A stretch of 64,000 nt of DNA from a bacterium (GTDB lineage Bacteria > Patescibacteriota > Doudnabacteria > UBA920): assembly GCA_016699995.1 (NCBI GenBank), contig CP064996.1, forward strand, positions 412,330-476,329, read 5' to 3'. The notes beneath the pieces were generated by a model that was given only the letters and a program-made list of their open reading frames with translations, was not told where the DNA came from and made no database searches. Positions 2,304 through 42,302 of the stretch are shown here, one piece after another (within the stretch, counting starts at the first letter, position 1; every line of letters starts with the position of its first letter). The translations under genes and the position numbers were made by a program.

Positions 2304-3404
2304 ATGAATCAGCTGTTTCAAAAATTGAAATTTTATGACATACCGCTACTAGTAGTTAGCGGTTTGTTGCTTGTTGTGGGCCTATCCATTCAGTATGCCA
2401 TTTCGCTGGGTGAAGGTGATTTGGGTTTATTCTACCGCCAGTTCGCGTTCGCTAGCGGGGGTTTGGTGGTGTTTGTTCTGCTGGCTAATTACAACTACCA
2501 GGTGTTGGCTAAGCAAAACCGGATCATATATCCGATTTTAATCTTCGCGCTTATTTATCTGGTTCTGTTCGGAGACCCGATTCGCGGCAGCGCGCGCTGG
2601 ATTGATTTTGGATTTTTTCAGTTGCAGCCCGCAGAATTGGCAAAAATTATTATCGGTTTAGGATTATCGCGCTGGCTGTATCTTCATCGGGGCGAAATCA
2701 ATTCGTGGAAAAATATTCTACTGACTTTTGTCTACGCTGCGATGCCTGCAGTACTGATAGCCATGGAGCCGGATTTGGGCTCGTCGTTAATTGTTATGGC
2801 GGTATGGTTTGGAATTATTTTACTTAGTCCGATCCGCCGGTCTTTAATAGTAGTATTTCTAATTGCAGGAATTTTGTTTGCTGGCTTTTCCTGGCAGTTC
2901 CTGCTGCGCGATTACCAAAAGTTGCGCGTAGAAGTATTTTTGAATCCGGATAAGGATCCGCAGGGCAAAGGGTATAACGTACGGCAGGCGACAATTGCTG
3001 TAGGGAGCGGACAGCTTACCGGGCGTGGCCTGGGCCAGGGCGTGCAGAGTGGACTAAAGTTTTTGCCGGAAAAGCATACTGACTTTGTTTTTGCTGCATC
3101 AAGCGAAGAGATCGGCTGGGTCGGATCCATCGCGGTGTTAACTCTTTTTTATATTTTGATGATTCGTATAATCAAAATTATGCAGACTGCCCGCAATGAT
3201 TTGGCTATGTATATTGCCGGCGGTATTTTGTTCTTATTCGGATCGCAGGTTGTTATTAACATCGGCATGAACATCGGATTGCTGCCGGTAACAGGGATTC
3301 CTTTGCCGTTTATCACTTATGGAGGCAGCTCGATGCTAGTTACTGCCATTGCATTGGGGATTGTGCAAAACATCGCCAAACAGTCCAAAGTGCTCCGGTT
3401 TTAG
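2304..3404 (+). CDS. rodA: SEDS-family peptidoglycan glycosyltransferase (RodA/FtsW family)
   Basis: Polytopic membrane protein with the conserved SEDS segments DFGFFQLQPAELAKI, GYNVRQATIAVGSGQLTGRGLGQG and PEKHTDFVFAASSEEIGWVGS. A second SEDS copy sits in the dcw cluster at 47718, so this one is provisionally called RodA. Confidence 0.75.
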   Translation: MNQLFQKLKFYDIPLLVVSGLLLVVGLSIQYAISLGEGDLGLFYRQFAFASGGLVVFVLLANYNYQVLAKQNRIIYPILIFALIYLVLFGDPIRGSARWIDFGFFQLQPAELAKIIIGLGLSRWLYLHRGEINSWKNILLTFVYAAMPAVLIAMEPDLGSSLIVMAVWFGIILLSPIRRSLIVVFLIAGILFAGFSWQFLLRDYQKLRVEVFLNPDKDPQGKGYNVRQATIAVGSGQLTGRGLGQGVQSGLKFLPEKHTDFVFAASSEEIGWVGSIAVLTLFYILMIRIIKIMQTARNDLAMYIAGGILFLFGSQVVINIGMNIGLLPVTGIPLPFITYGGSSMLVTAIALGIVQNIAKQSKVLRF

Positions 3405-5496: not shown

Positions 5497-6590
5497 TACG
5501 AGTTTTTGATCGCTTCTTTTTTGAGTTCAGTATCAGCTTTCTGAAGCGCTTCGATTATTCCGCCCAGTTCTCCTTCCATAATCAAGTTAATTTGGTTAAA
5601 GTTTTGGTTAATGCGATGATCAGTTACGCGGTCCTGCGGGAAGTTATAGGTGCGGATTTTTTCGCTGCGATCGCCGGTGCCAATCTGACTGCGCTTGTTG
5701 TCGGACAGCTTTTTTTCTTCGATTTCACGGTAGTAGCTAGAAACGCGCGCGCGGATAACCGCCAGAGCTTTTTCTTTGTTCTGTGACTGGCTGCGTTCAT
5801 CCTGGCAGGTAGCCATAATTCCTGTTGGAATATGGACTACGCGGATAGCACTATATGTTGTGTTTACGCTCTGGCCGCCTGCGCCCTGCGAGGTAGTGGC
5901 TTCGATCCGCAGATCTTTTGGGTCAATGCTGTAATCGTTTTCTTCCAATTCCGGCATTACAGCGACGGTTATCGTAGAGGTGTGCACTCGGCCGCTTTTC
6001 TCTGTTTCCGGTACGCGCTGCACGCGGTGTACTCCGGATTCGTACTTAAAGATACCGTAGGGGCCAATGTCGCTATTAGGTCCGGCGCTCGGACGGCCGG
6101 TAATCTCGAAGATGACTTCTTTATAGCCGCCGGCATCATTCGTAGAGCTGGAAACAACATTAACTTTCCAATTATTGCTTTCGGCATATTTTGAGTAAGC
6201 TCGGAAAAGCTCGGCAGCAAACAATCCTGCTTCATCGCCGCCGGCACCGGCGCGCATTTCTAAAATAGCGTTCTTTTGGTAGTACTCGTCTTTGGGAATT
6301 AGGTCGGTTTCTATTTCTTCGTTTAGTTCCAAAATGCGCCCTTCAATGGTTCGGATTTCTTCTAGGGCCATGTTGCGCATTTCTTCATCTACTTCGCTCC
6401 CGGCCTCCGCTAATTCTCTGTTGCCGGTTAATTCATCTTCTAATTTTTGTATTGTCTGAATTTTTTCAACGACAGGCAAAAGCTCAGCTTGGCGTTTGCC
6501 GAGTTTGGCGAGGTCAATATTACCGCCAGAACTGAGCTGCTCGGTAAGCTGATTGTATTCTTCTAAAATTTTATTGAATCCTGGGTTCAT
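5496..6590 (-). CDS. prfA: peptide chain release factor 1
   Basis: GGQ motif in SQGAGGQSVNTTYSAIRVVHIPTGI. Start is placed at MNPGFNKILEEY, 12 codons inside the track ORF. Confidence 0.9.
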   Translation of the reverse strand: MNPGFNKILEEYNQLTEQLSSGGNIDLAKLGKRQAELLPVVEKIQTIQKLEDELTGNRELAEAGSEVDEEMRNMALEEIRTIEGRILELNEEIETDLIPKDEYYQKNAILEMRAGAGGDEAGLFAAELFRAYSKYAESNNWKVNVVSSSTNDAGGYKEVIFEITGRPSAGPNSDIGPYGIFKYESGVHRVQRVPETEKSGRVHTSTITVAVMPELEENDYSIDPKDLRIEATTSQGAGGQSVNTTYSAIRVVHIPTGIMATCQDERSQSQNKEKALAVIRARVSSYYREIEEKKLSDNKRSQIGTGDRSEKIRTYNFPQDRVTDHRINQNFNQINLIMEGELGGIIEALQKADTELKKEAIKNS

Positions 6591-10080: not shown

Positions 10081-10096
10081 CCATGAAAGAAAACTT

Positions 10097-10120
10097 AACC
10101 CGCCTAGTGGCGGGTTTTTG
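10097..10120 (+). terminator. rho-independent terminator after tRNA-Thr
   Basis: CCCGCC-TAGT-GGCGGG followed by TTTTT. Confidence 0.7.
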
Positions 10121-10240
10121 ATTTGGTGAATTTGCCGTTTATGCCGATTTTGCAGATGAAAGTAGAGTATGGGAGAATTGACAAAACCATCCTTTTATAT
10201 TATAGTTAGCGGTTATTATCAATTTTTTAGGAGGAAAAAG

Positions 10241-12136
10241 ATGAAAGACTTAAAGCTATTTAATACTGTGCAGCCTGTTCAGTTTGTTAACGAAGAGGAT
10301 GCTCGTTTTTCCGACTTGCAAGATCGCATTGGCCTATACTCCTACAAGCTTGTGGATCTAGCTGAATCTAATCTTGAGGAAGTGCAGGCTCGTCAGTCAA
10401 TTTTGATGTGGCTGCTAAACAATAGTTCATTATTGGAAAAGTCATTCTTTAGATACGGGATGAGTGGATCCATAGATGGCTACAAGAGTGATGCGACGAT
10501 TCCAAGAAATGCTAGCAGCTTTCTAGCTTACGCACAGTTCATCTTAGAGAAACGAACAGCTTTTTGGCAACGTATCAAACAATTCAATAGTATCGATGAC
10601 TCTTTGTATCGTTTGCCTCAGCGCATTCAAAATTTAAGCAATTACCTTGCGACTGAAGGTGCTGTTAAGTACGAAGAAGAGATGGCTCTGACCAGGCGGA
10701 TGATCGCCGAATTGCGCGAGAGTACGGCGATTCAGGGGGTATTGAAATTCTCAGTGGAAAGCAGAACCCATACCGTAAGGTTTGAAAAAGATGAATCATG
10801 CTATGGTACTTGGTATTACCATCCTTGTGTTGATCCGCTCTTGGATCCTTCCTCGGGGGCGGTGGTCAAGTTCTTGAACAAAATCAAACCAGTCCGCTGG
10901 CTAATCAAGAAGACAAAGGATGCAATCTTCTACGTGAAGAAAGGAGTTGCTCAAATCCGCGAAACCCCCGAATCTATCATCGAGGACGTTCGTATGTTCC
11001 TGGTTAAGAAATGCCAGGAGGATGCCGATTTTGCCGCTTTAGGTAATTGCTCCATCACCGTCGGCTATGTGTTTGACCATACTGGCTTGACTGTATCGCT
11101 GCTGGATTGGAAATACAACAAAATTAGTTCCCGCGGCAGAGAGCTGTATGAGCCTGATCACGGCCTTGCGGTGCGAGAGCGTTCGGCGGACAAAGTTTCC
11201 AAAAAAATGAGCCAACTCCTACGGCTCCGGTATAAAAAGCAGCTCGATGTTTTGGCGGATAAGGTGTTTGTAGAAAACTGCGGACCGATCGAAATTCCTT
11301 GCAAGAATGCCCAACAGGCATTTGCCGATTTGAGTTTCCAGGATATATGGGATCAGTACGAGGAAGAAATCTCCGATCTTAGACAATGGCAAAAGGATGT
11401 AATTGCTCTCTTCAAGGATTTGGGTATCTATTCGGACCTGGCTCACATGATTATGGAACTGGAATTGCCGTATTGTTTTCCAAAAATTGTTGAACAAGGC
11501 GCTATACAGTTTGAGCGATTCTATCCCATTCGTGTTAGGACAGAGGCTAAGACCTATTGCGAACCATTCAGCGGTATCGAGATAGACGACAAGGTTGTGA
11601 ATATTACCGGTGCAAATGGGTCAGGTAAGTCAACCGTGATGTTGGCCGTTCTAGACAATTTAATGCTGGCTCATTGCGGCTTACCTGTCTTTGCAGCCGA
11701 TGCGCAGGTCATTTTGCTCGAACATATTATGCTGAGCTTTTTGGATCGCGATTCCGATAAAAGTACATTCACCGCCAAATTTGAGAAGGACGTTTTTACG
11801 ATGCAATCATTGGAGAAACTTTCTAAAGCTCAGCGGGCTAAGACGTTGATTATCAACGATGAGCTGGGTTCGGCTACGGATCCAGTGGAAATGCTCGATC
11901 TGGCAAAAGAGTATTTGATGTACCTTTATGATCTAGGGGCTCATAGCATTACTTCTAGTCAGATCAAAGAGCTAGGGATCTTTGTGGAGTCGGCGGAGTC
12001 AGGGGGCATCGGCAAGAACCTCGTCATCGACAAAACTTATACAATCAAGCCTGGCTTGGAATCTGGCCGACCCAAGGAGGTGGCCAAGCGACTGGGCTTT
12101 GATGAAATCATTAAGCGTAAGGCTGTCGCAGCCTAA
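10241..12136 (+). CDS. MutS-family P-loop ATPase (MutS ATPase domain V plus C-terminal helix) lacking mismatch-binding and Smr domains
   Basis: Walker A ITGANGSGKSTVMLAVLDNLMLAHCGLPVFAADAQVILLEHIMLSF matches GPNMGGKST...AQ.G..VPA of MutS. Walker B LIINDELGSATD. C-terminal YTIKPGLESGRPKEVAKRLGFDEII resembles the MutS Y.l.pG.a..S.gi.vA.l.G.p tail. Start at 10241 follows GGAGGAAAAAG. Confidence 0.65.
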   Translation: MKDLKLFNTVQPVQFVNEEDARFSDLQDRIGLYSYKLVDLAESNLEEVQARQSILMWLLNNSSLLEKSFFRYGMSGSIDGYKSDATIPRNASSFLAYAQFILEKRTAFWQRIKQFNSIDDSLYRLPQRIQNLSNYLATEGAVKYEEEMALTRRMIAELRESTAIQGVLKFSVESRTHTVRFEKDESCYGTWYYHPCVDPLLDPSSGAVVKFLNKIKPVRWLIKKTKDAIFYVKKGVAQIRETPESIIEDVRMFLVKKCQEDADFAALGNCSITVGYVFDHTGLTVSLLDWKYNKISSRGRELYEPDHGLAVRERSADKVSKKMSQLLRLRYKKQLDVLADKVFVENCGPIEIPCKNAQQAFADLSFQDIWDQYEEEISDLRQWQKDVIALFKDLGIYSDLAHMIMELELPYCFPKIVEQGAIQFERFYPIRVRTEAKTYCEPFSGIEIDDKVVNITGANGSGKSTVMLAVLDNLMLAHCGLPVFAADAQVILLEHIMLSFLDRDSDKSTFTAKFEKDVFTMQSLEKLSKAQRAKTLIINDELGSATDPVEMLDLAKEYLMYLYDLGAHSITSSQIKELGIFVESAESGGIGKNLVIDKTYTIKPGLESGRPKEVAKRLGFDEIIKRKAVAA

Positions 12137-12140
12137 ATAT

Positions 12141-12177
12141 AAAACCTGTTCTGAAGTTCAGAACAGGTTCTTTTTAT
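12141..12177. terminator. bidirectional intrinsic terminator between the convergent MutS-like and HD genes
   Basis: AACCTGTTCTGAA-G-TTCAGAACAGGTT 13 bp stem with a flanking T-run. Confidence 0.8.
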
Positions 12178-12186
12178 TTACTTTGC

Positions 12187-12801
12187 TTATTTTGATTCAG
12201 CAGCGGGGGACGCGGCGCAGCAGCGCTTGGCTCCGAGCCATGAATCGTGCCCTTCTGCTGGGTGATTGTACCAGATCCGAGCGCTGGCCACGTCTGCCAT
12301 GTGGCATAGAGCGGCCAGTTCGTTCATAACTCTGTTGCGGCTGGAATAATCCTTGCCTTCGCCTTCTACGTACTTCATTGCATTCAGTTGCATATCGTTG
12401 AGCTCAATTCCGTATTTCTTGAGCAGCGCCATGCGGAATTTATGCTGAGCGCGCTTTTGGGTAAGATGAGGTTTTACATGGAGCACGCCGTCTTCGTCGA
12501 TGTCGTACTTAAAAGGTTTTTCGACATCATGTAGAAATGTAATCAACAGCACGTCTGATAAAGTAAAAGACAGTTTTCTGTAAGCAGATAAAGTGTTGTA
12601 CAGCACCATGCCGATATTCATGATTTCGGCGATGTGATCATGGTAACCGCCGGGCCAAGCTTGGTGGTTGTTAGTCGAGCCCTGGGTTTTTTTGAATAGA
12701 TCAAAATTTTCTTTGTATAAGCGTATGCATCCCAGCTGATTGGGGCCGTGTATCCAACGCAACAGATCGTGCACAGGGTAAGATCTTTGCAAAGCAGTCA
12801 T
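12187..12801 (-). CDS. HD-domain metal-dependent phosphohydrolase
   Basis: H...HD...D motifs: GGYHDHIAEI, FLHDVEKP, LCHMADVAS. The track ORF (to 12933) runs upstream through the tRNA-Tyr exon. The real start MTALQRSYPV at 12801 follows a GGAGGAAT SD. Confidence 0.7.
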   Translation of the reverse strand: MTALQRSYPVHDLLRWIHGPNQLGCIRLYKENFDLFKKTQGSTNNHQAWPGGYHDHIAEIMNIGMVLYNTLSAYRKLSFTLSDVLLITFLHDVEKPFKYDIDEDGVLHVKPHLTQKRAQHKFRMALLKKYGIELNDMQLNAMKYVEGEGKDYSSRNRVMNELAALCHMADVASARIWYNHPAEGHDSWLGAKRCCAASPAAESK

Positions 12802-12852
12802 AATTCCTCCAGAAAAAAGTGAACTAAGTTTAGCAAAATTTTGCGGGCATTT

Positions 12853-12879
12853 CAAAAAACACCCTTGCGGGTGTTTTGA
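12853..12879 (-). terminator. intrinsic terminator downstream of the minus-strand tRNA-Tyr
   Basis: Minus-sense AACACCCGCAAGGGTGTT hairpin followed by TTTTTTG. Confidence 0.6.
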
Positions 12880-12882
12880 TGG

Positions 12883-13158
12883 TGGGCAGGACAGGATTCG
12901 AACCTGTGAAGGCACAAGGCCGGCTGATTTCACTTTATCCTAAAGTTACCTAAAGGCGTGGACTATATCTTCACCATTGCAGGTGTCCCGGTATCTAGTC
13001 TCTACGGCGCTCTCATGATTGTGAGTTCCCACGGTATTGCCCTTGTCTTACGACAGTCGGGTTTCACCGTTATCCCGGAAAGTTTATCGTACAGTTCTTG
13101 TTCCCGTACGAGCTGCATTTTTACAGTCAGCTGCGTTTGACCGCTTCGCTACCTACCC
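12883..13158 (-). tRNA. tRNA-Tyr (anticodon GTA) interrupted by a ~192 nt group I intron in the anticodon loop; mature tRNA about 84 nt
   Basis: Minus-sense exon 1 is GGGTAGG-TA-GCGA-AGCGGTCAA-ACGC-A-GCTGA-CTGT (13158..13123). Exon 2 is AAA-TCAGC-CGGCCTTGTGCCTTC-ACAGG-TTCGAAT-CCTGT-CCTGCCC-A-CCA (12930..12880). Joined, they give a class II tRNA near-identical in architecture to E. coli tRNA-Tyr (long variable arm, anticodon loop CU-GUA-AA, CCA encoded). Confidence 0.7.
12931..13122 (-). ncRNA. group I self-splicing intron within tRNA-Tyr
   Basis: 5' exon ends in U, and CUGU pairs with intron GCAG to form P1 with a U.G at the splice site. Intron ends in G (…GGATAAAGTG). Contains J6/7-P7 GUAGAGACUAGA and P7 3' strand GAAGAUAUAGUCC, closely resembling the Azoarcus and Tetrahymena group I cores. 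Confidence 0.65.
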
Positions 13159-13173
13159 GTAGCTAACTGTAGA

Positions 13174-13202
13174 ATTCTAACTCATTTTGGGCTTTTTGGC
13201 AA
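13174..13202 (-). promoter_or_regulatory. candidate promoter for tRNA-Tyr (TTGCCA-N17-TAGAAT)
   Basis: Minus-sense -35 and -10 boxes with a 17 nt spacer, ending about 15 nt upstream of the tRNA 5' end. Confidence 0.45.
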
Positions 13203-13460
13203 GAATTGTTGGTTATAAAAGAAAAAAACGCTGTGGAAGCGTTATAAAGGTGGGATGCGAGAATGGGTCCGACTTACCCTGAGAAAACGCTGGTATAGTT
13301 CGGATTCGCGCATGGTGGAGGATATATCCTCCGGTGGGTTGTTATGGTGGGGTTTGTTAAGGTGGGATAGCTTTTCAGCTACTTTCAGAATACCCCTCGG
13401 ACTGGACAATGTCAAGGGTTTATGTTAAACTTTGAAAGTTAATTTAATAGCTTAAACCGG

Positions 13461-13533
13461 GCCGGCTTAGCTCATCCGGTAGAGCAACGGTTTTGTAAAC
13501 CGTAGGTGGTCGGTTCGAGTCCGACAGCCGGCT
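13461..13533 (+). tRNA. tRNA-Thr (anticodon TGT)
   Basis: Acceptor GCCGGCT/AGCCGGC, D arm GCTC-ATCCGGTA-GAGC, anticodon arm ACGGT-TTTGTAA-ACCGT, T arm GTCGG-TTCGAGT-CCGAC, CCA encoded. Confidence 0.85.
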
Positions 13534-13558
13534 CCAGCCAAAATATTAAAGATCAGAT

Positions 13559-13714
13559 ATGTCACAAGATCACAGAATTCAGTTGGAATGCACTGAATGC
13601 CGCAACATCAACTATAATACTACTAAGAATAAAAAGAATACCCAGGCTCGCTTGGAGATTAAGAAGTATTGTAAGTTTTGCCGCAAGCAGACCGTTCACA
13701 AGGAAACCAAGTAA
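13559..13714 (+). CDS. rpmG: 50S ribosomal protein L33 (51 aa; below the ORF-track length cutoff)
   Basis: [51 protein letters not shown]: CxxC...CxxC zinc ribbon and the conserved KNK..RLE.KKYC..C.KHT.HKE L33 signature. Confidence 0.85.
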
Positions 13715-13715
13715 C

Positions 13716-13740
13716 ACCCGCACCCCATGCGGGGTTTTGG
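13716..13740 (+). terminator. weak terminator/attenuator after rpmG
   Basis: CCCGCACCCCATGCGGGG hairpin followed by TTTT. It overlaps a TATAAT box (13741-13746) that may drive tRNA-Trp. Confidence 0.4.
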
Positions 13741-13777
13741 TATAATAGGGGAGTCGACTAGCAGGTGAATCATGCGA

Positions 13778-13848
13778 GGGGGCTTCGTATAATGGTAGTA
13801 CAATGGTCTCCAAAACCATTTGCGTAGGTTCGATTCCTACAGCCCCTG
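13778..13848 (+). tRNA. tRNA-Trp (anticodon CCA)
   Basis: Acceptor GGGGGCT/AGCCCCT (G1.U72), anticodon arm ATGGT-CTCCAAA-ACCAT, T arm GTAGG-TTCGATT-CCTAC, discriminator G, CCA encoded. Confidence 0.8.
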
Positions 13849-13889
13849 CCACAAAAACACTCAGTTATGCTGAGTGTTTTTGTTTGAGG
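13844..13889 (+). repeat. direct repeat copy 1 (tRNA-Trp 3' end plus terminator), 46 nt
   Basis: CCCTGCCACAAAAACACTCAGTTATGCTGAGTGTTTTTGTTTGAGG recurs at 14484-14529 with 4 mismatches. Confidence 0.8.
13853..13884 (+). terminator. rho-independent terminator after tRNA-Trp
   Basis: AAACACTCAG-TTATG-CTGAGTGTTT followed by TTGTTTG. Confidence 0.75.
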
Positions 13890-13908
13890 GTATGCGAGAA
13901 TCGAACTG

Positions 13909-14433
13909 GTGTATAATAAGTTTATGAGTAAAATACTTATTGTAATTGGGATACTAGGTGCAATCGTTATTGTGCTAAAACTTGTATTGAACAATACTGA
14001 AGCAGAAGCATATCCTTTTGAGAGGAAACCAAATTTTCTGACACCTAGTGAAATGGCTTTTTTTAGAGTTTTATTGAAAATAATAAATGATCAGTATTTT
14101 GTTTTTCCACAAGTACATCTGGCTAGTATTTTGCAGGTAAAAAAGGGAGAATTTGATAGAAAGGAGTGGAAAAGATATTTTAACAAACTAATTCAAAAAT
14201 CTTTCGATTTCGTTATCTTAGATAGGGAAACCTTAAACCCTCTGCTTGTAATCGAATTAGATGATTATACACATTTACAGAGTAAGCGAATTAAGAGGGA
14301 TCTATTTGTAGATAACGCCTTAAAATCAGCCCAAATCAATATCTTACATATTAAGTGTGAAAAGGAGTACAATATCGAAGAACTAAGAACTCTAATTTTC
14401 CAAGCACTATCTCATCCTGGTGAACGACAGTAA
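13909..14433 (+). CDS. DUF2726-family protein (restriction-endonuclease-like fold) with N-terminal TM helix
   Basis: FLTPSEMAFFRVLLKII...VFPQVHLASIL...QKSFDFVILDRETLNPLLVIELDDYTHLQSKRIKRDLFVDNALKSAQINILHI fits the DUF2726 pattern l.p.E..f...L...y.vf.qv.l..il....fDFvl.d......l.aIELDD.sH....RD.f. AT-rich relative to neighbours. Confidence 0.6.
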   Translation: MYNKFMSKILIVIGILGAIVIVLKLVLNNTEAEAYPFERKPNFLTPSEMAFFRVLLKIINDQYFVFPQVHLASILQVKKGEFDRKEWKRYFNKLIQKSFDFVILDRETLNPLLVIELDDYTHLQSKRIKRDLFVDNALKSAQINILHIKCEKEYNIEELRTLIFQALSHPGERQ

Positions 14434-14483
14434 GATAGACAGTGACGCAAAGTGGATATAGAGTTCTAATATCCTCCATAACA

Positions 14484-14529
14484 CCCTGCCACAAAAACAC
14501 TCAGTCATGCTAGGTGTTTTTGTTTGGGT
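14484..14529 (+). repeat. direct repeat copy 2, with slightly degraded terminator hairpin
   Basis: ACACCCTGCCACAAAAACACTCAGTCATGCTAGGTGTTTTTGTTTGGG. One hairpin position is now an A.C mismatch. Confidence 0.8.
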
Positions 14530-14532
14530 AAT

Positions 14533-14575
14533 AAAAGAGAGCGTGGATTCTTTTTAAGAATCCACGCTCTGCATA
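14533..14575. terminator. bidirectional intrinsic terminator
   Basis: AGAGCGTGGATTC-TTTTTAA-GAATCCACGCTCT 13 bp perfect stem. Confidence 0.75.
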
Positions 14576-14578
14576 ACT

Positions 14579-14929
14579 TTAGTACCTGCGGCCGTACGAG
14601 CCATTCCCGGTCGGCTGCCACTGAACACATGCTTCCGGAGGCGGGTTTGGGGTTCGGTACTGACCTTTGAAAACCCTTACCATACCAGTCTGGCTATGCA
14701 TCAGCTTCTTAAGCAAAGTTTCGGGCAGACTGCTCGTTTCTACCTGGAATGGCTTGCCATCGGTGTAAGTTGCTTCGCCTCGGTTGCCAATGCGAAAAGG
14801 TGCTGCGTACCGATCAAGGTTGTTCTTGTCTAAGTGCAGCGAAAAACCATCGGGCTTGTCGCCAAAAAACTCATCCGCTTCCAGATATACCTGGCAGTAT
14901 ACCTTGGATGGTACTGTATTTTTTTTCAT
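14579..14929 (-). CDS. hypothetical protein (116 aa)
   Basis: Strong GGAGG SD 5 nt upstream of the ATG, and a terminator downstream. No recognisable motif. Confidence 0.5.
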   Translation of the reverse strand: MKKNTVPSKVYCQVYLEADEFFGDKPDGFSLHLDKNNLDRYAAPFRIGNRGEATYTDGKPFQVETSSLPETLLKKLMHSQTGMVRVFKGQYRTPNPPPEACVQWQPTGNGSYGRRY

Positions 14930-15177
14930 ATTCCCCTCCTTAAGGTGCGCTTGGTTGCTTTTTTAAGATTTATTTTTATTGCTCAAGTAGTCAACGAATC
15001 AGCTTCGTTGTTGACTCTAGAGCCTAGCAGAAAAAAAGGGTTTTGTCAAGGCGGCAACGTCCTCAGATTATAATATTTGGATGCTTTAATCATTAAAATT
15101 AGACATTCTGAAAATAAAAAAGAGATGAATTTTTCATCTCTCGATATTTCTTTACTCGTCTACTGTCGAATAATATC

Positions 15178-15444
15178 TTAATCATCTTTCTCAATAAACG
15201 TTTTATAGATGGCTACACCCCAGGCTATAAGGCACAGCCCAGGGTTCGTCTCCCAGTAGAACGTGGTGGCGATGATAGCATTTAAGAAGTAGGGGATAAA
15301 TACCCAAGCTGCGAACCCTAGCAGGGAAATGCCAGGGTCAGACGGGACTGTGTCCAGTGTAAATAGAGTCGTTAGTCTTGGAAAAAAAAATGCTGCAACT
15401 ATAATGATAAGTCCAGTGTCTGGATGTGCTTGCCAGAATTCCAT
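15178..15444 (-). CDS. small integral membrane protein (possibly YqaE/Pmp3-like)
   Basis: 88 aa with two hydrophobic helices. Weak resemblance only. Confidence 0.4.
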   Translation of the reverse strand: MEFWQAHPDTGLIIIVAAFFFPRLTTLFTLDTVPSDPGISLLGFAAWVFIPYFLNAIIATTFYWETNPGLCLIAWGVAIYKTFIEKDD

Positions 15445-15542
15445 GAATTATATTGTGCCTCCGTACTAAGATTTTATAAGCCTATTTTACCATATTTGTC
15501 TAATTTTGTCAATATCACTCGATTTACTGATATAATCAATCT

Positions 15543-15962
15543 ATGGAAATAAACTATATTGCGGTACTAGTTGCCGCTGTTGCGCAATTCATTTTTGGCG
15601 CAATTTGGTACATGCCGCTGTTTGGCGGCATGTGGGGCAAGATCCATGGCTTTGATGCTCACAGTAAAGAAGCTCAGGATGAGATGCGCAAAGGCATGAT
15701 GCCTTTGTTGGTTATTCAGTTTATTGGTACATTAGTCACTTCGTATGTTTTTGCACTCCTATACAAAGACATGCCCAGCCAGTGGCACGCCTACGGTTTC
15801 GCCGGCTTTTTGTGGTTAGGATTTATGGTCCCTACTCAAGTTGCGGCAGTATTGTTTGGCGGCACAGAACCAAAATGGGTTACCAAAAAAATCGCCATTA
15901 TGGCTGGAGCAGCTTTGGGTTGTATGATGATTTTGGCTTTCACGATCAGCGCTTTCAACTAA
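15543..15962 (+). CDS. DUF1761-like polytopic membrane protein
   Basis: LVAAVAQFIFGAIWYMPLFGGMWGK N-terminus is typical of DUF1761 (inference from memory). Confidence 0.5.
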   Translation: MEINYIAVLVAAVAQFIFGAIWYMPLFGGMWGKIHGFDAHSKEAQDEMRKGMMPLLVIQFIGTLVTSYVFALLYKDMPSQWHAYGFAGFLWLGFMVPTQVAAVLFGGTEPKWVTKKIAIMAGAALGCMMILAFTISAFN

Positions 15963-16014
15963 AATCCAAAAAACTGCCTTACCTAATGGGGCAGTTTTTT
16001 GTTATGCTATTTTC

Positions 16015-16557
16015 ATGACCGAGCAGGATATTAGAAATTTGATTTTAGATGATAGTGAAATGATGAATGTGTTAAAGGCCGTGAAGGACCTGCGACTACC
16101 GGATTGCTGGATAGGAGCGGGTTTCGTAAGGAATAAAGTTTGGAACTACTTACATCAATATCCTAACGACCTTAATTCGTCCGACATTGATGTTGTTTAT
16201 TATAATGATCGTAACACCGATTCAGAGCAGGAAAAAGCTATCGAAAATGCTTTAGCTCAGAAAATCTCCAGCGATTGGTCTGTTACGAACCAGGCTCGAA
16301 TGCACACGGAAAATGGAGATGAGCAATATACGTCTACTGAGGATGCGATTAGCTATTGGCCAGAGACTGCTACTGCAGTCGCGGTACGGCTCGGCCAAAG
16401 CCATGAATTGGAGATTATTGCCCCGTATGGTTTAGACGATCTGCTTTCTATGATTATAAGAATGTCACCAAAATTTAAAGATCCTAACAAGTTCAAGCAG
16501 AGGCTATCAAGTAAGCGCTGGCAGGAGAGATGGCCACAAGTTACAATTATTAATTAG
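16015..16557 (+). CDS. small nucleotidyltransferase-family protein (about 180 aa stand-alone NTase)
   Basis: LPDCWIGAGFVRNKVWNYLH...SDIDVVYYND carries a G[GS]-x9-13-DhD nucleotidyltransferase signature. Confidence 0.5.
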   Translation: MTEQDIRNLILDDSEMMNVLKAVKDLRLPDCWIGAGFVRNKVWNYLHQYPNDLNSSDIDVVYYNDRNTDSEQEKAIENALAQKISSDWSVTNQARMHTENGDEQYTSTEDAISYWPETATAVAVRLGQSHELEIIAPYGLDDLLSMIIRMSPKFKDPNKFKQRLSSKRWQERWPQVTIIN

Positions 16558-16562
16558 ATTTT

Positions 16563-17153
16563 ATGAGTATAGAACAAAATCGATTCGGTGAACAATTTTC
16601 GGAACAAGAAAGTCGTCAGCAAAGATGGAATGAACTTACTGTGGAGATTGACCAAATAAAAGATCGTTTAGGTAAAGGGATAGACGAAGGTATTAAAGAA
16701 GCTGTCATTGGTCTTCGAGCTTTGGATGTGAACGTAACCCAATCATGTGAAGGTCATAATGATCACGGGACAGGCGGGCCTTACATCGACGTAGAGTCTG
16801 ATTTGAATACAGTCCATGAGAAAGTATTGGAGCCTATGTATGGCAACCTGGACGATAAGGAAACACAGCAGAAATTTGACGATTTGGTAGAAGAAATTAA
16901 TTATAATAATTTGCGCGAAAGAAAAAAGCTGATCGAATTACTAGATGAATTCTATACCGGGCGAGAGACTCCTTATGAAATACGGCTATCCGTGAGCCCA
17001 ATGGCAAGATCTTGGAGCCGGCTAGAAAATCAGGGCGTGGGGTTACAAACGATTGAAGAAGACGCTGAAAAAAAGAACTTGCGATTAAAAATGTTTAAGG
17101 CCGAAATGGACGATTTTAAAGAATTTTTAAAGAACAAATTTTTCCAAACCTAA
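16563..17153 (+). CDS. hypothetical protein, acidic coiled-coil-rich with an SCEGHNDHGTGG segment
   Basis: 6 nt after the NTase stop and 17 nt before the kinase, implying an operon. Confidence 0.45.
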   Translation: MSIEQNRFGEQFSEQESRQQRWNELTVEIDQIKDRLGKGIDEGIKEAVIGLRALDVNVTQSCEGHNDHGTGGPYIDVESDLNTVHEKVLEPMYGNLDDKETQQKFDDLVEEINYNNLRERKKLIELLDEFYTGRETPYEIRLSVSPMARSWSRLENQGVGLQTIEEDAEKKNLRLKMFKAEMDDFKEFLKNKFFQT

Positions 17154-17169
17154 TTGAACAAGCAAACTG

Positions 17170-17757
17170 ATGCCTAAACCTGTGATCATCTTAGTAAACG
17201 GTTTGCCGGCAACTGGCAAAACCACCATAGCGACGAAAATCGCCGGTCATTTGCAATGGCCGATTTTTCGCAAGGATGACATCAAAGAGCAGCTCGCAGA
17301 TAGATTAAATGAATTTAACCTCGAAAGTTCTCATCGTTTAGGATTAGTGTCGCGGGTTATGCTGCGATATATCACAGAACAGCTTTCCCGATCCAATTCA
17401 AATTTTATAATCGACTCCAATTTTTCCAACGGCGTTCAGACAGACGAGTTTATTAACATGATGAAAAACGCTCGCCACCGTATCATCGAGGTGTTCCTTC
17501 ACACGGACGGCGAAGTGCTCTATGAAAGATTTAGGGACCGAATTAAGGATCGGCATCCGATCCATTTAGAACACTTTCAGGGCTTTGAAGATTTTAGAGA
17601 AACTATCAGTAAAGGATCGCTGCAGCCATTGTCTTTAGACGGAATCGTTATTAGAGTCGATACAACCGATTTTAGTAAATTGGATGAAAGTAAATTGCTA
17701 GAGGAAATCAAGAATTCATTAAATAATATTTATGAACATAATAGCGATTGGATTTGA
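17170..17757 (+). CDS. P-loop kinase-like ATPase (AAA_33/zeta-toxin/Cpt-like fold)
   Basis: Walker A VIILVNGLPATGKTTIATKIA at the N-terminus. Small-molecule or polynucleotide kinase architecture of about 190 aa. Confidence 0.55.
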   Translation: MPKPVIILVNGLPATGKTTIATKIAGHLQWPIFRKDDIKEQLADRLNEFNLESSHRLGLVSRVMLRYITEQLSRSNSNFIIDSNFSNGVQTDEFINMMKNARHRIIEVFLHTDGEVLYERFRDRIKDRHPIHLEHFQGFEDFRETISKGSLQPLSLDGIVIRVDTTDFSKLDESKLLEEIKNSLNNIYEHNSDWI

Positions 17758-17968
17758 TTACGGTGGAGTTATTGGGCTGCATAAAAGAGATTGAAGGAAA
17801 GCGGCTATAAATTAGGGATGTTGAGTAATAACTCCAAAGAGAAAACAGTTCAGAGATTGGATTCACTCCTATCCTGTATTTAAACGTTCGACAGCTCGAA
17901 GCCAGGCTTAAAGAGTTGGGAATTTTTTAGCCCTATCTATATATCTCGACTACAGGTATGATATAGAT

Positions 17969-18355
17969 ATGTCGGCACTGCAAAAGGAGCAAATTTACGT
18001 AGAATTGCGCAAATATCATTTGGACGAACTTCCAGATTCTTTTGCTAATCCTAAGCTAAATGAACTACTAGCCGAGTACCGGCTGCTGGAAGACCAGTCG
18101 ATCAGCATGCTGCTTGGGTTGGTAAATGGAAAGTCAGAAATTGCAGACTTTTCCAATGACTACGAAAATTTCGCTGCTAAAATTGAAATGTTAAATGATG
18201 TAGAAGATAAAAATGATAAGCAGCATTTTCATTCCAAGCTGGAGAGCTTAAAATATATTATTTCTATGGCCCAAGCCGCATCCTTTACCATTAGGCCAGT
18301 AAGAAAAATTAAACAGTCCAGCAGAGCAGTCGTGACAAAGATCAATAAAAAATGA
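17969..18355 (+). CDS. hypothetical protein (128 aa)
   Basis: Track ORF followed by a terminator. No motif. Confidence 0.4.
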   Translation: MSALQKEQIYVELRKYHLDELPDSFANPKLNELLAEYRLLEDQSISMLLGLVNGKSEIADFSNDYENFAAKIEMLNDVEDKNDKQHFHSKLESLKYIISMAQAASFTIRPVRKIKQSSRAVVTKINKK

Positions 18356-18386
18356 AACCGCGTTGTAACTCAAAGCGGTTTTTTGT
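18355..18386 (+). terminator. rho-independent terminator
   Basis: AAACCGCG...GCGGTTTTTTG. Confidence 0.5.
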
Positions 18387-18398
18387 TATCCTGATTTT

Positions 18399-18941
18399 AT
18401 GAATTTAAATGAATTGTTTGAAAAGGCCATCGTGCACAGAGAGCAACATCAGTGTAGCGCTTATCCCTATGAAAGCTATGATAGACTTTTTGAGATTGTT
18501 ACCGTCGAAAATCCAGACCGTATACTGGAGATAGGCTCTGGCTGCGGTTTTAGCGCTTGCGTTATGATGCTGGCCAGCCCAAGATTGCAGCTGGATAGTA
18601 TAGAGAAAGACCCAGAGCACGTTAAAGCTGCGCGTCAATTTTTGCAGGAAAATTTAACTCCGCAGGCAGCAGGGCGTGTAAGGATTATTGAGGGTATCGC
18701 GGAAGAAGTTTTAGAAAGATTGACTGAAGGGTATGATTTAATTTTCTTTGATGGTTATCAGATCCATTATGAATTTTTACCTCATTACAAAAGGCTGCTT
18801 AAAGCCGGCGGGCTGTTGGTTTTAGGAAACACGCATTTGAGCAGTAAAACCAGTGATAATTTCTTTGCGGAATTAAGTAACGGCAAGGATGGGAAGATCA
18901 TGGACCGATTCGCAGAAACGATACTGGCCCGCCGCATATAA
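18399..18941 (+). CDS. class I SAM-dependent O-methyltransferase (family 3, YrrM/TrmR-like)
   Basis: Motif I ILEIGSGCGFSACVMM and motif II DLIFFDG. Confidence 0.65.
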   Translation: MNLNELFEKAIVHREQHQCSAYPYESYDRLFEIVTVENPDRILEIGSGCGFSACVMMLASPRLQLDSIEKDPEHVKAARQFLQENLTPQAAGRVRIIEGIAEEVLERLTEGYDLIFFDGYQIHYEFLPHYKRLLKAGGLLVLGNTHLSSKTSDNFFAELSNGKDGKIMDRFAETILARRI

Positions 18942-40358: not shown

Positions 40359-42302
40359 ATGGAACAAAAAGAACAAATCAATTTTTTTGGCAAAACGAAC
40401 TTCCGCAATCGGCAAGTTCCTTTTGGCATTAAAACCGACGATCGCCGTCGTCACATGTATGTGATCGGTAAAACAGGAATGGGGAAGACCACGTTGATGG
40501 AAAACATGGTTATTCAGGATATCCGCAACGGCAACGGCGTCTGCTTCATCGACCCCCATGGCGATCCGATAATGAAAATTTTGGATTTTGTTCCGCCTCA
40601 TCGGATTAACGACGTGGTGTACTTTAATCCGGCCGATTTAGACTACCCGATCGCGTTCAATATATTAGAATCTGTGGAAAGCCGGTATAAACATTTAGTC
40701 GCTTCCGGCTTGATGGGTGTGTTCACCAAAATTTGGGCCAGCATGTGGTCTAGCCGTATGGAATACATTCTAAACAACACCATTTTGGCTTTGCTCGACA
40801 GTCCTGGCAACACTATGCTTGGTATTGTGCGAATGTATGTAGATAAAAAGTACCGTAAAAAAATTGTCGATAATATCAAGGATCCAATGGTTAAGGCTTT
40901 TTGGATTGAAGAGTTCGCCAATTATGCAGAAAAGTACCGAACAGAAGCCGTGGCTCCGATCCAGAACAAAGTCGGACAGTTTTTATCCTCGGCCGTCATT
41001 CGCAACATCGTGGGGCAGCCAAAATCTACAATAGATTTGCGCGATATAATGGATAACCAAAAAATTCTATTGCTGGACCTTTCTAAAGGTAAAGTGGGTG
41101 AAGATAACTCCGCGTTACTCGGAGCCATGATTATTACTAAACTCCAGTTGGCAGCTTTATCTCGCGTGGACATACCGGAAAGCGAACGTAAGGATTTTTA
41201 TTTATACGTGGACGAATTTCAAAACTTCGTCACGGACAGTTTTGCGACTATTCTAAGCGAAGCGCGTAAATATCGTTTAAACCTTACCATGGGCCACCAG
41301 TATATCGGCCAGCTGACTCCGGAAAACAATACCAAAGTTCGCGATGCCGTATTCGGTAACGTTGGCTCTATGATTGTATTCCGAGTAGGAGCGGCGGATG
41401 CCGAGTATTTAGAAACGGAGTTCGAACCGGCATTTACCCCTACAGACATCGTCAATTTGCCTAAATTCCATATCGTCTTAAAACTAATGATCAACGGCGT
41501 GGCCAGCGATCCTTTCACGGCTACAACCATTCCTGTCGATGAGAACTGGAGAATAGGGGACGGTGAAAAAGTAATTAAAGTTTCTCGAGAACGCTATGCT
41601 AATCCGCGTGAAGAAGTAGAAGAAAAGATTCAGCGCTGGATGGGCACAGAATTTCATGAGGCTTCTGCCGATTCGCACAGTGCTGAAAATGGCGAACAGT
41701 CTATCCGCAGACAGCGAGATCTTCCCGCACAAAAAGCTGGGACGGGCGGTTATGCTGCGTCCAGAGAACGCACCCCAGTGACTCGTCCGGAGAGCAATGA
41801 GAATATGCGCCAAACTGATCAAAATGATCAGCCTGGGGTAGTCGCGGAAGTAAGTGAAGTGGCTGTGCGTAAAGCCAGCATCCAAATCGCCGATGATTTC
41901 TTAAACCGCGTAAAGACTCCGGCCAAAGCTCCAGCCTTTGGTCCATCCGCCGCTGCGCCGGGAAAGCTGGGTCCAAATAGTAATTCAAATAGAACTGGAG
42001 GCCGTTCCTTTAGCAAGCCTAACAGTAGAACAGCTGCGGCACAGCCTGGCAACGCGTATTCGCGCCCAAAACCGGCTCCAAAAGGCCCAAAGAAGCCCGA
42101 CTTTTGGAAAACTGCCCAAACTCTAAATCAACAAAACCAGGAAGGATTGGCTAATAACATCGCTGATGCTTTAGAAGGCGCGTTTACAACAGCACCACCA
42201 AAACCTCAGCCAGCTGCACAACAAGCTCCAAAACCTCCAGTAGACGGTCAAAGTGCAAATCAGACCGGCATAGCAGAGGAAGGACAGACTTACAATTTAT
42301 AA
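40359..42302 (+). CDS. TraD/TraG/VirD4-like (AAA_10-type) P-loop ATPase with long low-complexity C-terminal tail
   Basis: Walker A YVIGKTGMGKTTLMENM and Walker B LYVDEFQNF. The last roughly 200 aa are rich in P/A/Q/G/N. Confidence 0.6.
   Translation: MEQKEQINFFGKTNFRNRQVPFGIKTDDRRRHMYVIGKTGMGKTTLMENMVIQDIRNGNGVCFIDPHGDPIMKILDFVPPHRINDVVYFNPADLDYPIAFNILESVESRYKHLVASGLMGVFTKIWASMWSSRMEYILNNTILALLDSPGNTMLGIVRMYVDKKYRKKIVDNIKDPMVKAFWIEEFANYAEKYRTEAVAPIQNKVGQFLSSAVIRNIVGQPKSTIDLRDIMDNQKILLLDLSKGKVGEDNSALLGAMIITKLQLAALSRVDIPESERKDFYLYVDEFQNFVTDSFATILSEARKYRLNLTMGHQYIGQLTPENNTKVRDAVFGNVGSMIVFRVGAADAEYLETEFEPAFTPTDIVNLPKFHIVLKLMINGVASDPFTATTIPVDENWRIGDGEKVIKVSRERYANPREEVEEKIQRWMGTEFHEASADSHSAENGEQSIRRQRDLPAQKAGTGGYAASRERTPVTRPESNENMRQTDQNDQPGVVAEVSEVAVRKASIQIADDFLNRVKTPAKAPAFGPSAAAPGKLGPNSNSNRTGGRSFSKPNSRTAAAQPGNAYSRPKPAPKGPKKPDFWKTAQTLNQQNQEGLANNIADALEGAFTTAPPKPQPAAQQAPKPPVDGQSANQTGIAEEGQTYNL

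Follow-up and report, generated by a model that had tools for sequence, protein, structure and literature searches.

The 64,000-nt stretch of bacterial DNA analyzed here (positions 412,330 to 476,329 of contig CP064996.1, called the window below) carries, directly behind its tRNA-Trp gene, a small unit (13852-14491) with a single gene coding for a DUF2726 protein. This unit belongs to a family of cassettes, integron-like or dif-module-like in organization and anchored at a tRNA, that we found in a clade of Saccharibacteria-type genomes of the Candidate Phyla Radiation (CPR). We have very little doubt that the family of arrays and the anatomy described below are real. Site-specific recombination at an 8-nt core (CCCTGCCA) by an enzyme acting in trans seems to be the best mechanism for it, and we consider it rather probable that the unit of the window is a mobile mini-cassette inserted in this way in the 3' end of tRNA-Trp.

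The tRNA-Trp(CCA) gene (13778-13851, + strand; detected by ARAGORN and by Rfam RF00005 at 65.6 bits) is intact, and its CCA is encoded. A first reading of this DNA (the original prediction) held that the end of this gene and its terminator are duplicated at both sides of a DUF2726 open reading frame (ORF), and this duplication is real. A repeat and mismatch search gave a direct repeat of 43 nt (13844-13886 and 14484-14526) with 3 mismatches (93% identity), of which there are only two copies in the 64 kb, while none was expected from 100 shuffles. Two details had to be corrected, since over the 46 nt considered originally there are 5 mismatches instead of 4, and the repeated part of the tRNA amounts to 8 nt, CCA included, instead of 7. 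The repeat is made up of these last 8 nt of tRNA-Trp, CCCTGCCA, a terminator hairpin, and a T-run. In the first copy, the core (13844-13851, +), where the crossover would take place, leads into a hairpin that we call type B (13851-13886, +; stem of 14 to 15 bp plus T-run, -19.8 kcal/mol, z -5.9) and that terminates tRNA-Trp. The second, attR-like copy (14484-14526, +) has the same core, hairpin, and T-run, but the hairpin is weakened (-14.6 kcal/mol), as had been noticed already, and behind it there is neither the R arm nor the promoter that follow the first. The DNA between the copies (ca. 594 bp, 31 to 35% GC versus ca. 44% around it) agrees with the AT-rich insert of about 600 bp and a single ORF that had been described. 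The first sequence of the flank past the cassette is a perfect 15-bp hairpin (14538-14570; inverted repeat, terminator scan, and fold at -24.6 kcal/mol), which terminates a convergent minus-strand gene of 116 aa.

This repeat is merely the middle part of a longer composite boundary element of ca. 100 to 110 nt. Alignment of the junctions gave the order left (L) arm, core CCCTGCCA, terminator hairpin (of several types), TTTTTGTTTGAGGG, right (R) arm, TGGTGTATAAT, 6 nt, and ATG. All these parts are present in the window, with the R arm and the promoter-like box behind the tRNA (13886-13917) and the L arm in front of the second copy (14459-14483). The L arm (26-nt consensus AAATAGTTCTAACATCCTnCACYACR) constitutes the 3' terminus of the cassette, which is conserved and resembles a diverged tRNA T-arm. 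In the window (TAGAGTTCTAATATCCTCCATAACA, 14459-14483, +) it was recovered by a pattern search (one match, none expected) and by an nhmmer profile (E value of 3.9e-8, nothing else in 64 kb). At the tRNA-proximal site, the left arm is the tRNA itself, i.e., its T-arm and the 3' strand of the acceptor (13827-13851). The R arm (GAGGGTATGCGAGAATCGAACT, 13886-13907, +; detected as an inverted repeat) is an inverted copy of the T-arm and acceptor of the tRNA, and so 13886-13907 and 13826-13851 close an imperfect palindrome of 83 nt that folds, as DNA, into a hairpin (13826-13908, -24.6 kcal/mol, z -8.0). R arms are conserved at 12 sites on 8 contigs, read ..GGAAATAGAAC or ..GAGAATCGAAC and, as a class, are complementary to the tRNA T-arm. 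Apart from the tRNA, no known RNA family was found on the boundary element by an Rfam search.

The last component is an extended -10 promoter-like box, TGGTGTATAAT (13907-13917, +; the only match in 64 kb), located 6 nt before the ATG. The box and the identical 6-nt spacing were found at nine other cassette junctions. From its consensus, it is likely to be a promoter and, because it is only 6 nt ahead of the ATG, the DUF2726 mRNA is predicted to be leaderless. The two arms and the promoter box are found at no other locus of the window, and the element is therefore not a general intergenic motif. Compact gene starts of related design, in which a terminator T-run is followed by an extended -10 (TGnTATAAT, TATGCT, or TATCCT), exactly 6 nt, and the ATG, do recur (window 13907-13926, 15993-16017, and 18377-18401, and two contigs of relatives, L011 10310-10335 and L007 5205-5227). 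They leave no space for a Shine-Dalgarno sequence, which suggests widespread leaderless mRNAs in this lineage.

At least six further contigs of Saccharibacteria type (those of relatives are given here as L numbers) have the same element behind rpmG-tRNA-Trp, where it separates units of 0.64 to 1.3 kb with one or two ORFs each, in arrays of one to six or more. There is a single unit in the window and in L007, two in L008, two or three in L010 (together with L009), at least three in L025, and six in L002, whereas for L005 and L006 we note the presence of the R arm and promoter at tRNA-Trp. L025 was the closest relative obtained (L33 protein 94% identical), and L002 carries, downstream of rpmG-tRNA-Trp, the closest homolog of the DUF2726 protein (P0002, 69% amino acid identity). 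When 185,579 species, each represented by one genome, were scanned with a gapped pattern, only four metagenome-assembled genomes were retrieved, three labeled “Ca. Saccharibacteria” and one Doudnabacteria, always with the element at tRNA-Trp, and the JGI metagenomes yielded two contigs from a single population. In IMG/VR, scans detected neither the full element nor the L arm; when the bare tRNA-Trp 3' end was used, the 32 contigs obtained contained Firmicute-type tRNA clusters and were irrelevant. Phage BLAST of 13400-15000 produced only matches to tRNA-Thr genes.

One relative has no cassette. L011 (L33 80% identical) is syntenic with the window upstream (L25, PrmC, RF1, L31, S2, Ts, and TPR), and its tRNA-Trp is directly followed by a plain terminator (CAAAAATCGCCG..CGGCGGTTTTTTG), with neither L nor R arm in 20 kb. 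The search for empty sites that had been recommended gave this tRNA-Trp with a plain terminator in another species, with different genes downstream; a same-species empty site was not found. The idea of an att-like footprint around an inserted unit is supported, with the same unit and ends found elsewhere in the arrays of L002 and L003 and the tRNA-Trp of L011 lacking the unit. It had also been asked whether secE-nusG is the usual neighbor of rpmG/tRNA-Trp, and this is not so in L002, L005 to L008, L010, L011, or L025; as secE-nusG appears behind tRNA-Trp in none of these relatives of the lineage, no canonical operon has been disrupted here. Three other genomes recovered through L33 were of little help, two of them (P0021 and P0009) from non-CPR bacteria with the canonical order rpmG-secE-nusG-rplK-rplA and one (P0012) from a distant CPR genome whose tRNA-Trp has neither CCA nor element.

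The same cargo appears at different positions. The DUF2726 gene is in the first unit in the window and in the fourth in L002, there as a fusion with a GNAT gene; in L003, the gene has an EamA gene beside it and is followed by a degenerate L arm. Between L006 and L008, the first gene is 69% identical. Cassette genes are AT rich compared with their hosts, with 31.8% GC for the DUF2726 ORF versus 43.6% for the whole window and 31 to 38% versus 43 to 46% in L002. The syntenic contig L005 shares with the window 12190-13926 and a DUF1761 gene (15528-15964), and the genes between them are entirely different, so that window 13927-15527 has no counterpart there.

At terminal or heterologous junctions, the L arm and CCCTGCCA are followed at once by unrelated hairpins (L002 6296, L007 5176, L010 7070, L025 2581, and L008 6862), and CCCTGCCA is the only stretch common to tRNA-Trp and to every internal or terminal site (7 loci). 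That similarity ends right after CCCTGCCA indicates site-specific recombination at the 8-nt core. Eight nucleotides is the usual size of the overlap region in site-specific recombination and is below what RecA-type exchange needs. The hairpin next to the terminal core in L007 and L002 (AAAAATCGCCGC..GGCGGTTTTTTG) is of the type found behind tRNA-Trp in the cassette-free L011, from which we infer that the crossover falls within or at the core and that hairpin, R arm, and promoter arrive together with the downstream ORF. A common chromosomal flank could not be defined, as L007 and L002 have unrelated genes past their terminal sites.

On these grounds, the free cassette would be a small circle containing one composite site (L arm, CCCTGCCA, hairpin, R arm, extended -10, 6 nt, and ATG) and the ORF. 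A recombinase whose gene lies elsewhere would exchange strands between the core of the cassette and its identical counterpart, the 8 nt that end tRNA-Trp. Such an insertion would regenerate the tRNA gene, provide it with the terminator of the cassette, and place the L arm and a second copy of the core ahead of the sequence formerly downstream of the tRNA. The cargo would be transcribed from the promoter of the cassette itself, probably as a leaderless mRNA. Repeated tRNA-proximal insertions would then stack into arrays with the newest unit beside the tRNA, and older junctions would decay.

Downstream of the cassette, the genes between 14579 and 18941 have no repeats and are accessory; they code for two minus-strand proteins of 116 and 88 aa, DUF1761, NTP_transf_6, a 196-aa protein, an AAA_33 kinase, a 128-aa protein, and a methyltransferase. 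The 196-aa ORF (16563-17153) and the 128-aa ORF (17969-18355) have no Pfam match and no flanking repeats, and both are homologous to repeat-bounded cassette genes of L025 (401-1009, 36.5% identity, and 2695-3108, 40% identity, respectively). Given these two homologs, the region from 14.5 to 18.9 kb probably belongs to the same variable island, of which it would be an older and decayed portion. The 128-aa ORF also matches L007 7792-7998.

Several observations weigh against site-specific insertion. No member of the Phage_integrase, resolvase, or transposase families was detected in the 48 ORFs of the window scanned, whose matches were all to housekeeping or accessory families, and the Pfam families computed beforehand for L002, L003, L011, and L025 include no recombinase. 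The original prediction also held that no integrase is present, which agrees with this, and its attribution of the event to an integrase can be kept only as a likely interpretation, the enzyme itself not having been found. Left arm and R arm are no more complementary in situ than in shuffled pairings (permutation p 0.45), and with this the notion of covariation between each R arm and the left arm opposite, as in an attC-like folded site, was rejected. Spacers with a terminator and an extended -10 also precede ordinary genes (15963-16014 and 18356-18398), and part of the conservation of the element may be transcriptional. Moreover, the hairpins are more alike within a genome (98% identity in L008 and L002, 93% in the window) than between homologous cassettes of different genomes, the homologous DUF2726 cassettes having type B in the window and type A in L002; such a pattern would imply either gene conversion acting on the repeats or cassettes that circulate within populations. 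The cassette-free contig, L011, comes from another species, and the gene behind its terminator is unrelated to its counterparts in L007 and L002. Look-ups of exact proteins gave no same-species empty site, since L33, the ORF in its 174-aa form, and the neighbor of 116 aa had no record and the 169-aa form returned only the same genome. Neither a circular form nor polymorphism at the level of reads was seen, and the sample, ca. 20 sites on 8 contigs, is small.

The main rival is homologous recombination in the manner of minimal mobile elements, with the ca. 100-nt repeats as regulatory spacers and RecA-dependent exchange of units, e.g., after transformation, without any dedicated recombinase. 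Natural transformability has been reported for Saccharibacteria, and the failure to find a recombinase, the near identity of repeats within each genome, and the generality of terminator plus extended -10 spacers would all fit, as would the presence of the same cargo with different hairpin types across genomes, which is what concerted evolution predicts. Even so, we think that this is unlikely to be the explanation. Exchange by RecA is difficult to reconcile with junctions, to the tRNA and to heterologous hairpins, located exactly at the 8-nt core, too short for this protein, in at least five independent sites, and with a 26-nt L arm that has no evident transcriptional role and yet is conserved in six genomes with unrelated cargo. 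The restriction of the element to the tRNA-Trp locus speaks against this model too, and it would be left unexplained how unrelated genes first gain both ends.

A single-strand insertion by HUH/Y1 (IS200/IS605-like) enzymes, which would place hairpin-ended units 3' of CCCTGCCA in place of tyrosine or serine recombination, appears improbable. It would explain why insertion is always directly 3' of a fixed short sequence and why each unit starts with a strong hairpin, and it requires no target duplication past the shared core and no linked recombinase; elements of this type are, by analogy, often nonautonomous. However, neither TnpA nor RAYT was detected in the 48 ORFs of the window, and manual inspection of the L-arm end revealed no consistent second subterminal hairpin.

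As to the choice offered originally between a decayed island remnant and a minimal cassette, comparison with the relatives speaks for the latter. A remnant of an integrase-bearing island or prophage at tRNA-Trp, reduced to two att copies and one cargo gene, would leave the classic footprint of a duplicated tRNA 3' end, and the degraded second hairpin and the accessory, variable DNA downstream (14530-18941) are compatible with it. We regard it as very improbable, since the 594 bp hold an intact ORF together with the L arm, R arm, and promoter and no fragment of an integrase; the same compact units and ends are found up to six times in tandem elsewhere, which would not be expected of independent decay, and the element has no phage or IMG/VR match. 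Finally, a simple local duplication of the tRNA terminator, without mobility, accounts for nothing other than the similarity of the two 43-nt copies and is already refuted by the low-GC gene that separates them, by the conservation in other genomes of the L arm before the second copy, and by the fact that no relative has a doubled terminator without intervening DNA.

The cargo of the window (13924-14433, +) is a protein with an N-terminal transmembrane helix and a DUF2726 domain. Translation most likely begins at the ATG at 13924, which gives a protein of 169 aa identical to NCBI QQS23362.1, and not at the GTG at 13909, from which the 174 aa given originally result; the description as a membrane-anchored DUF2726 protein is correct. 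The match to PF10881 (E value of 1.8e-30) covers profile positions 3 to 124 of 126 with 105.7 bits, versus a gathering threshold of 24.7. The AlphaFold model (pLDDT of 90.8, from an alignment of 12 sequences) has a helix at residues 2 to 23, where the hydrophobic stretch ILIVIGILGAIVIVLKLVL lies, and then an alpha/beta domain. According to this model, the domain has a Vsr-like PD-(D/E)xK nuclease fold, in line with the restriction-endonuclease-like fold suggested previously. Its fold likeness is highest to the catalytic domain of I-Bth0305I (9.9), NGO0050 (9.8), and Vsr (9.6), followed by RAP domains (8.1 to 9.3), Bax1 (8.2), and type II restriction enzymes (BpuSI and BstEII, 8.1). K92, D95, E111, D113, D114, and H117 are invariant. 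By hidden Markov model, fold, and conserved acidic residues, the protein is a clear member of the DUF2726/Vsr-like PD-(D/E)xK nucleases, although no biochemical function is known for the DUF2726 family itself. A search of PDB sequences found no relative.

The original prediction also linked the family of this protein to defense islands. An antiphage role is unsupported, with no match to the PADLOC models (E value of ≤0.01) for the protein or its immediate neighbors. Neither is the solitary membrane-anchored architecture of ca. 170 aa unusual, as had been thought, because it is common among 6924 representative clusters (E value of ≤1e-3), many of them of 160 to 175 aa and aligned from residues 4 to 8. 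That the protein is a DNA nuclease of the cell envelope is our guess.

Some observations on the other cassettes and on the surroundings of the locus should be mentioned. In L002, the third cassette (2700-3215) seems to have two small overlapping ORFs (ca. 48 and 116 aa), both without a recorded Pfam match, in a layout that recalls toxin-antitoxin pairs. The 116-aa gene beside DUF2726 in L002 was considered as a homolog of the 116-aa gene of the window, and they turned out not to be homologous. Between rpmG and tRNA-Trp, L010 alone among the relatives has a short, apparently truncated GIY-YIG-like ORF (MYHVYLIQSKKDQKFYIGCTSDLKNRLSQHN..., 6378-6535). In an independent Logan assembly of the organism of the window (SRR11674018, 42.9-kb contig L001), position 1 corresponds to window 13781, i.e., the contig breaks inside tRNA-Trp, possibly owing to strain heterogeneity or to a repeat at the junction in the sample.

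A second rearranged or variable spot at a tRNA cluster is located at 10084-13160. The tRNA-Thr(GGT) and tRNA-Tyr genes are adjacent and on the same strand in L007 and L008, whereas in the window they are separated and tRNA-Tyr is inverted. Between them there are a 655-aa P-loop protein (10169-12136), with a subthreshold match to MutS domain V, and a minus-strand ORF of 248 aa without Pfam match. The tRNA-Tyr(GTA) itself (12872-13158, -), not called by ARAGORN, seems to be split by an insert of ca. 189 nt; its halves (13158-13120 and 12930-12872) are 90 to 100% identical to the uninterrupted tRNA-Tyr of L007 and L010. The insert matches the group I intron family RF00028 of Rfam (31 bits, E value of 2e-5), below the gathering score, and the same arrangement is found in L005 (632-916, 91% identity). 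Far from the cassette, in a region otherwise dedicated to cell wall and secretion, a 647-aa protein (40359-42302) matches the DNA-binding domain of TrwB/VirD4-type coupling proteins (E value of 8e-12) as well as HerA/DUF87 and is preceded by a 407-aa ORF without family.

The genomes of Saccharibacteria and other CPR bacteria are tiny and usually held to be poor in classical mobile elements. Tentatively, and with somewhat less than even confidence, we propose that the clade has a hitherto undescribed capture system analogous to integrons, in which the 3' end of tRNA-Trp would play the part of attI, a palindromic site of ca. 110 nt would double as terminator and as promoter of a leaderless mRNA, so that each gene captured would be expressed autonomously, and a recombinase encoded at another locus, perhaps of a type not known so far, would insert and excise the cassettes. 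In the literature on integrons, attC sites, genomic islands, and variable regions of Saccharibacteria and Patescibacteria, we found no description of such a locus or arrays. If this proposal is true, these 1-Mb epibionts would have a compact device for gene capture and a dedicated slot for flexible genes, and it would be a new case of modules bounded by recombination sites outside Proteobacteria. The pool of cargo (DUF2726, kinases, methyltransferases, Nudix, EamA, and small membrane proteins) would then provide candidates for functions in host interaction or niche adaptation, and the L arm, core, and R arm might be used as an integration cassette for the few Saccharibacteria that are genetically tractable.

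In function, the closest parallels are integron cassettes and the dif modules of Acinetobacter. As in integrons, there are tandem arrays of mostly single-ORF units of ca. 0.6 to 1.3 kb, each ending in an imperfect palindrome of ca. 100 nt, with one fixed platform site, the newest unit presumably in the proximal position, and a diverse, AT-rich, accessory cargo. Even the start TCTAAC within the L arm resembles the R'' box of attC (RYYYAAC). However, the platform here is the 3' end of a tRNA instead of an attI beside intI, with neither IntI nor any other integrase nearby, and a right-hand GTTRRRY box is present in only one of ca. 12 sites (L002 2607, GTTAGAT). The crossover also appears to be at the left (core) side and not at the right end, and each cassette comes with its own terminator and predicted promoter, whereas integron cassettes are generally promoterless and rely on Pc. 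The arrays thus share the tandem organization of integrons and cannot be counted among them. Saccharibacteria, Patescibacteria, and CPR are not mentioned in the IntegronFinder 2.0 survey (PMC9024848).

The pdif modules of Acinetobacter and the Xer-dependent IMEX elements are similar in being small modules of one or two genes, serially arranged, with short sites and no recombinase of their own. The pdif modules are thought to be moved by a host recombinase in trans (PMC6449649). Their sites differ, however, being 28-bp XerC/XerD dif-like sequences on plasmids or at the chromosomal dif, whereas here there are a tRNA-Trp end and an L arm of 26 nt. Inspection of the element by eye revealed no dif-like sequence.

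With tycheposons and other tRNA islands, the cassettes have in common integration at a tRNA 3' end, direct repeats of part of the tRNA, and an intact tRNA on one side. Serial integration is a further likeness: in tycheposons, successive integrations push older elements inward, their repeats degenerate, and a streamlined genome gains flexible genes (bioRxiv 10.1101/2020.12.28.424599). Unlike the units described here, of 0.6 to 1.3 kb, with cargo only and a conserved terminator-promoter end, tycheposons have several kilobases with their own tyrosine recombinase and replication module. Likewise, tRNA islands encode their integrase, and the 594-bp insert of the window holds only the DUF2726 ORF.

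Lastly, the minimal mobile elements of Neisseria also present alternative cargo in a fixed chromosomal slot without mobility genes. Those elements are exchanged by homologous recombination through long conserved flanking genes. The cassettes described here instead form tandem stacks and have their junctions at a core of 8 nt.

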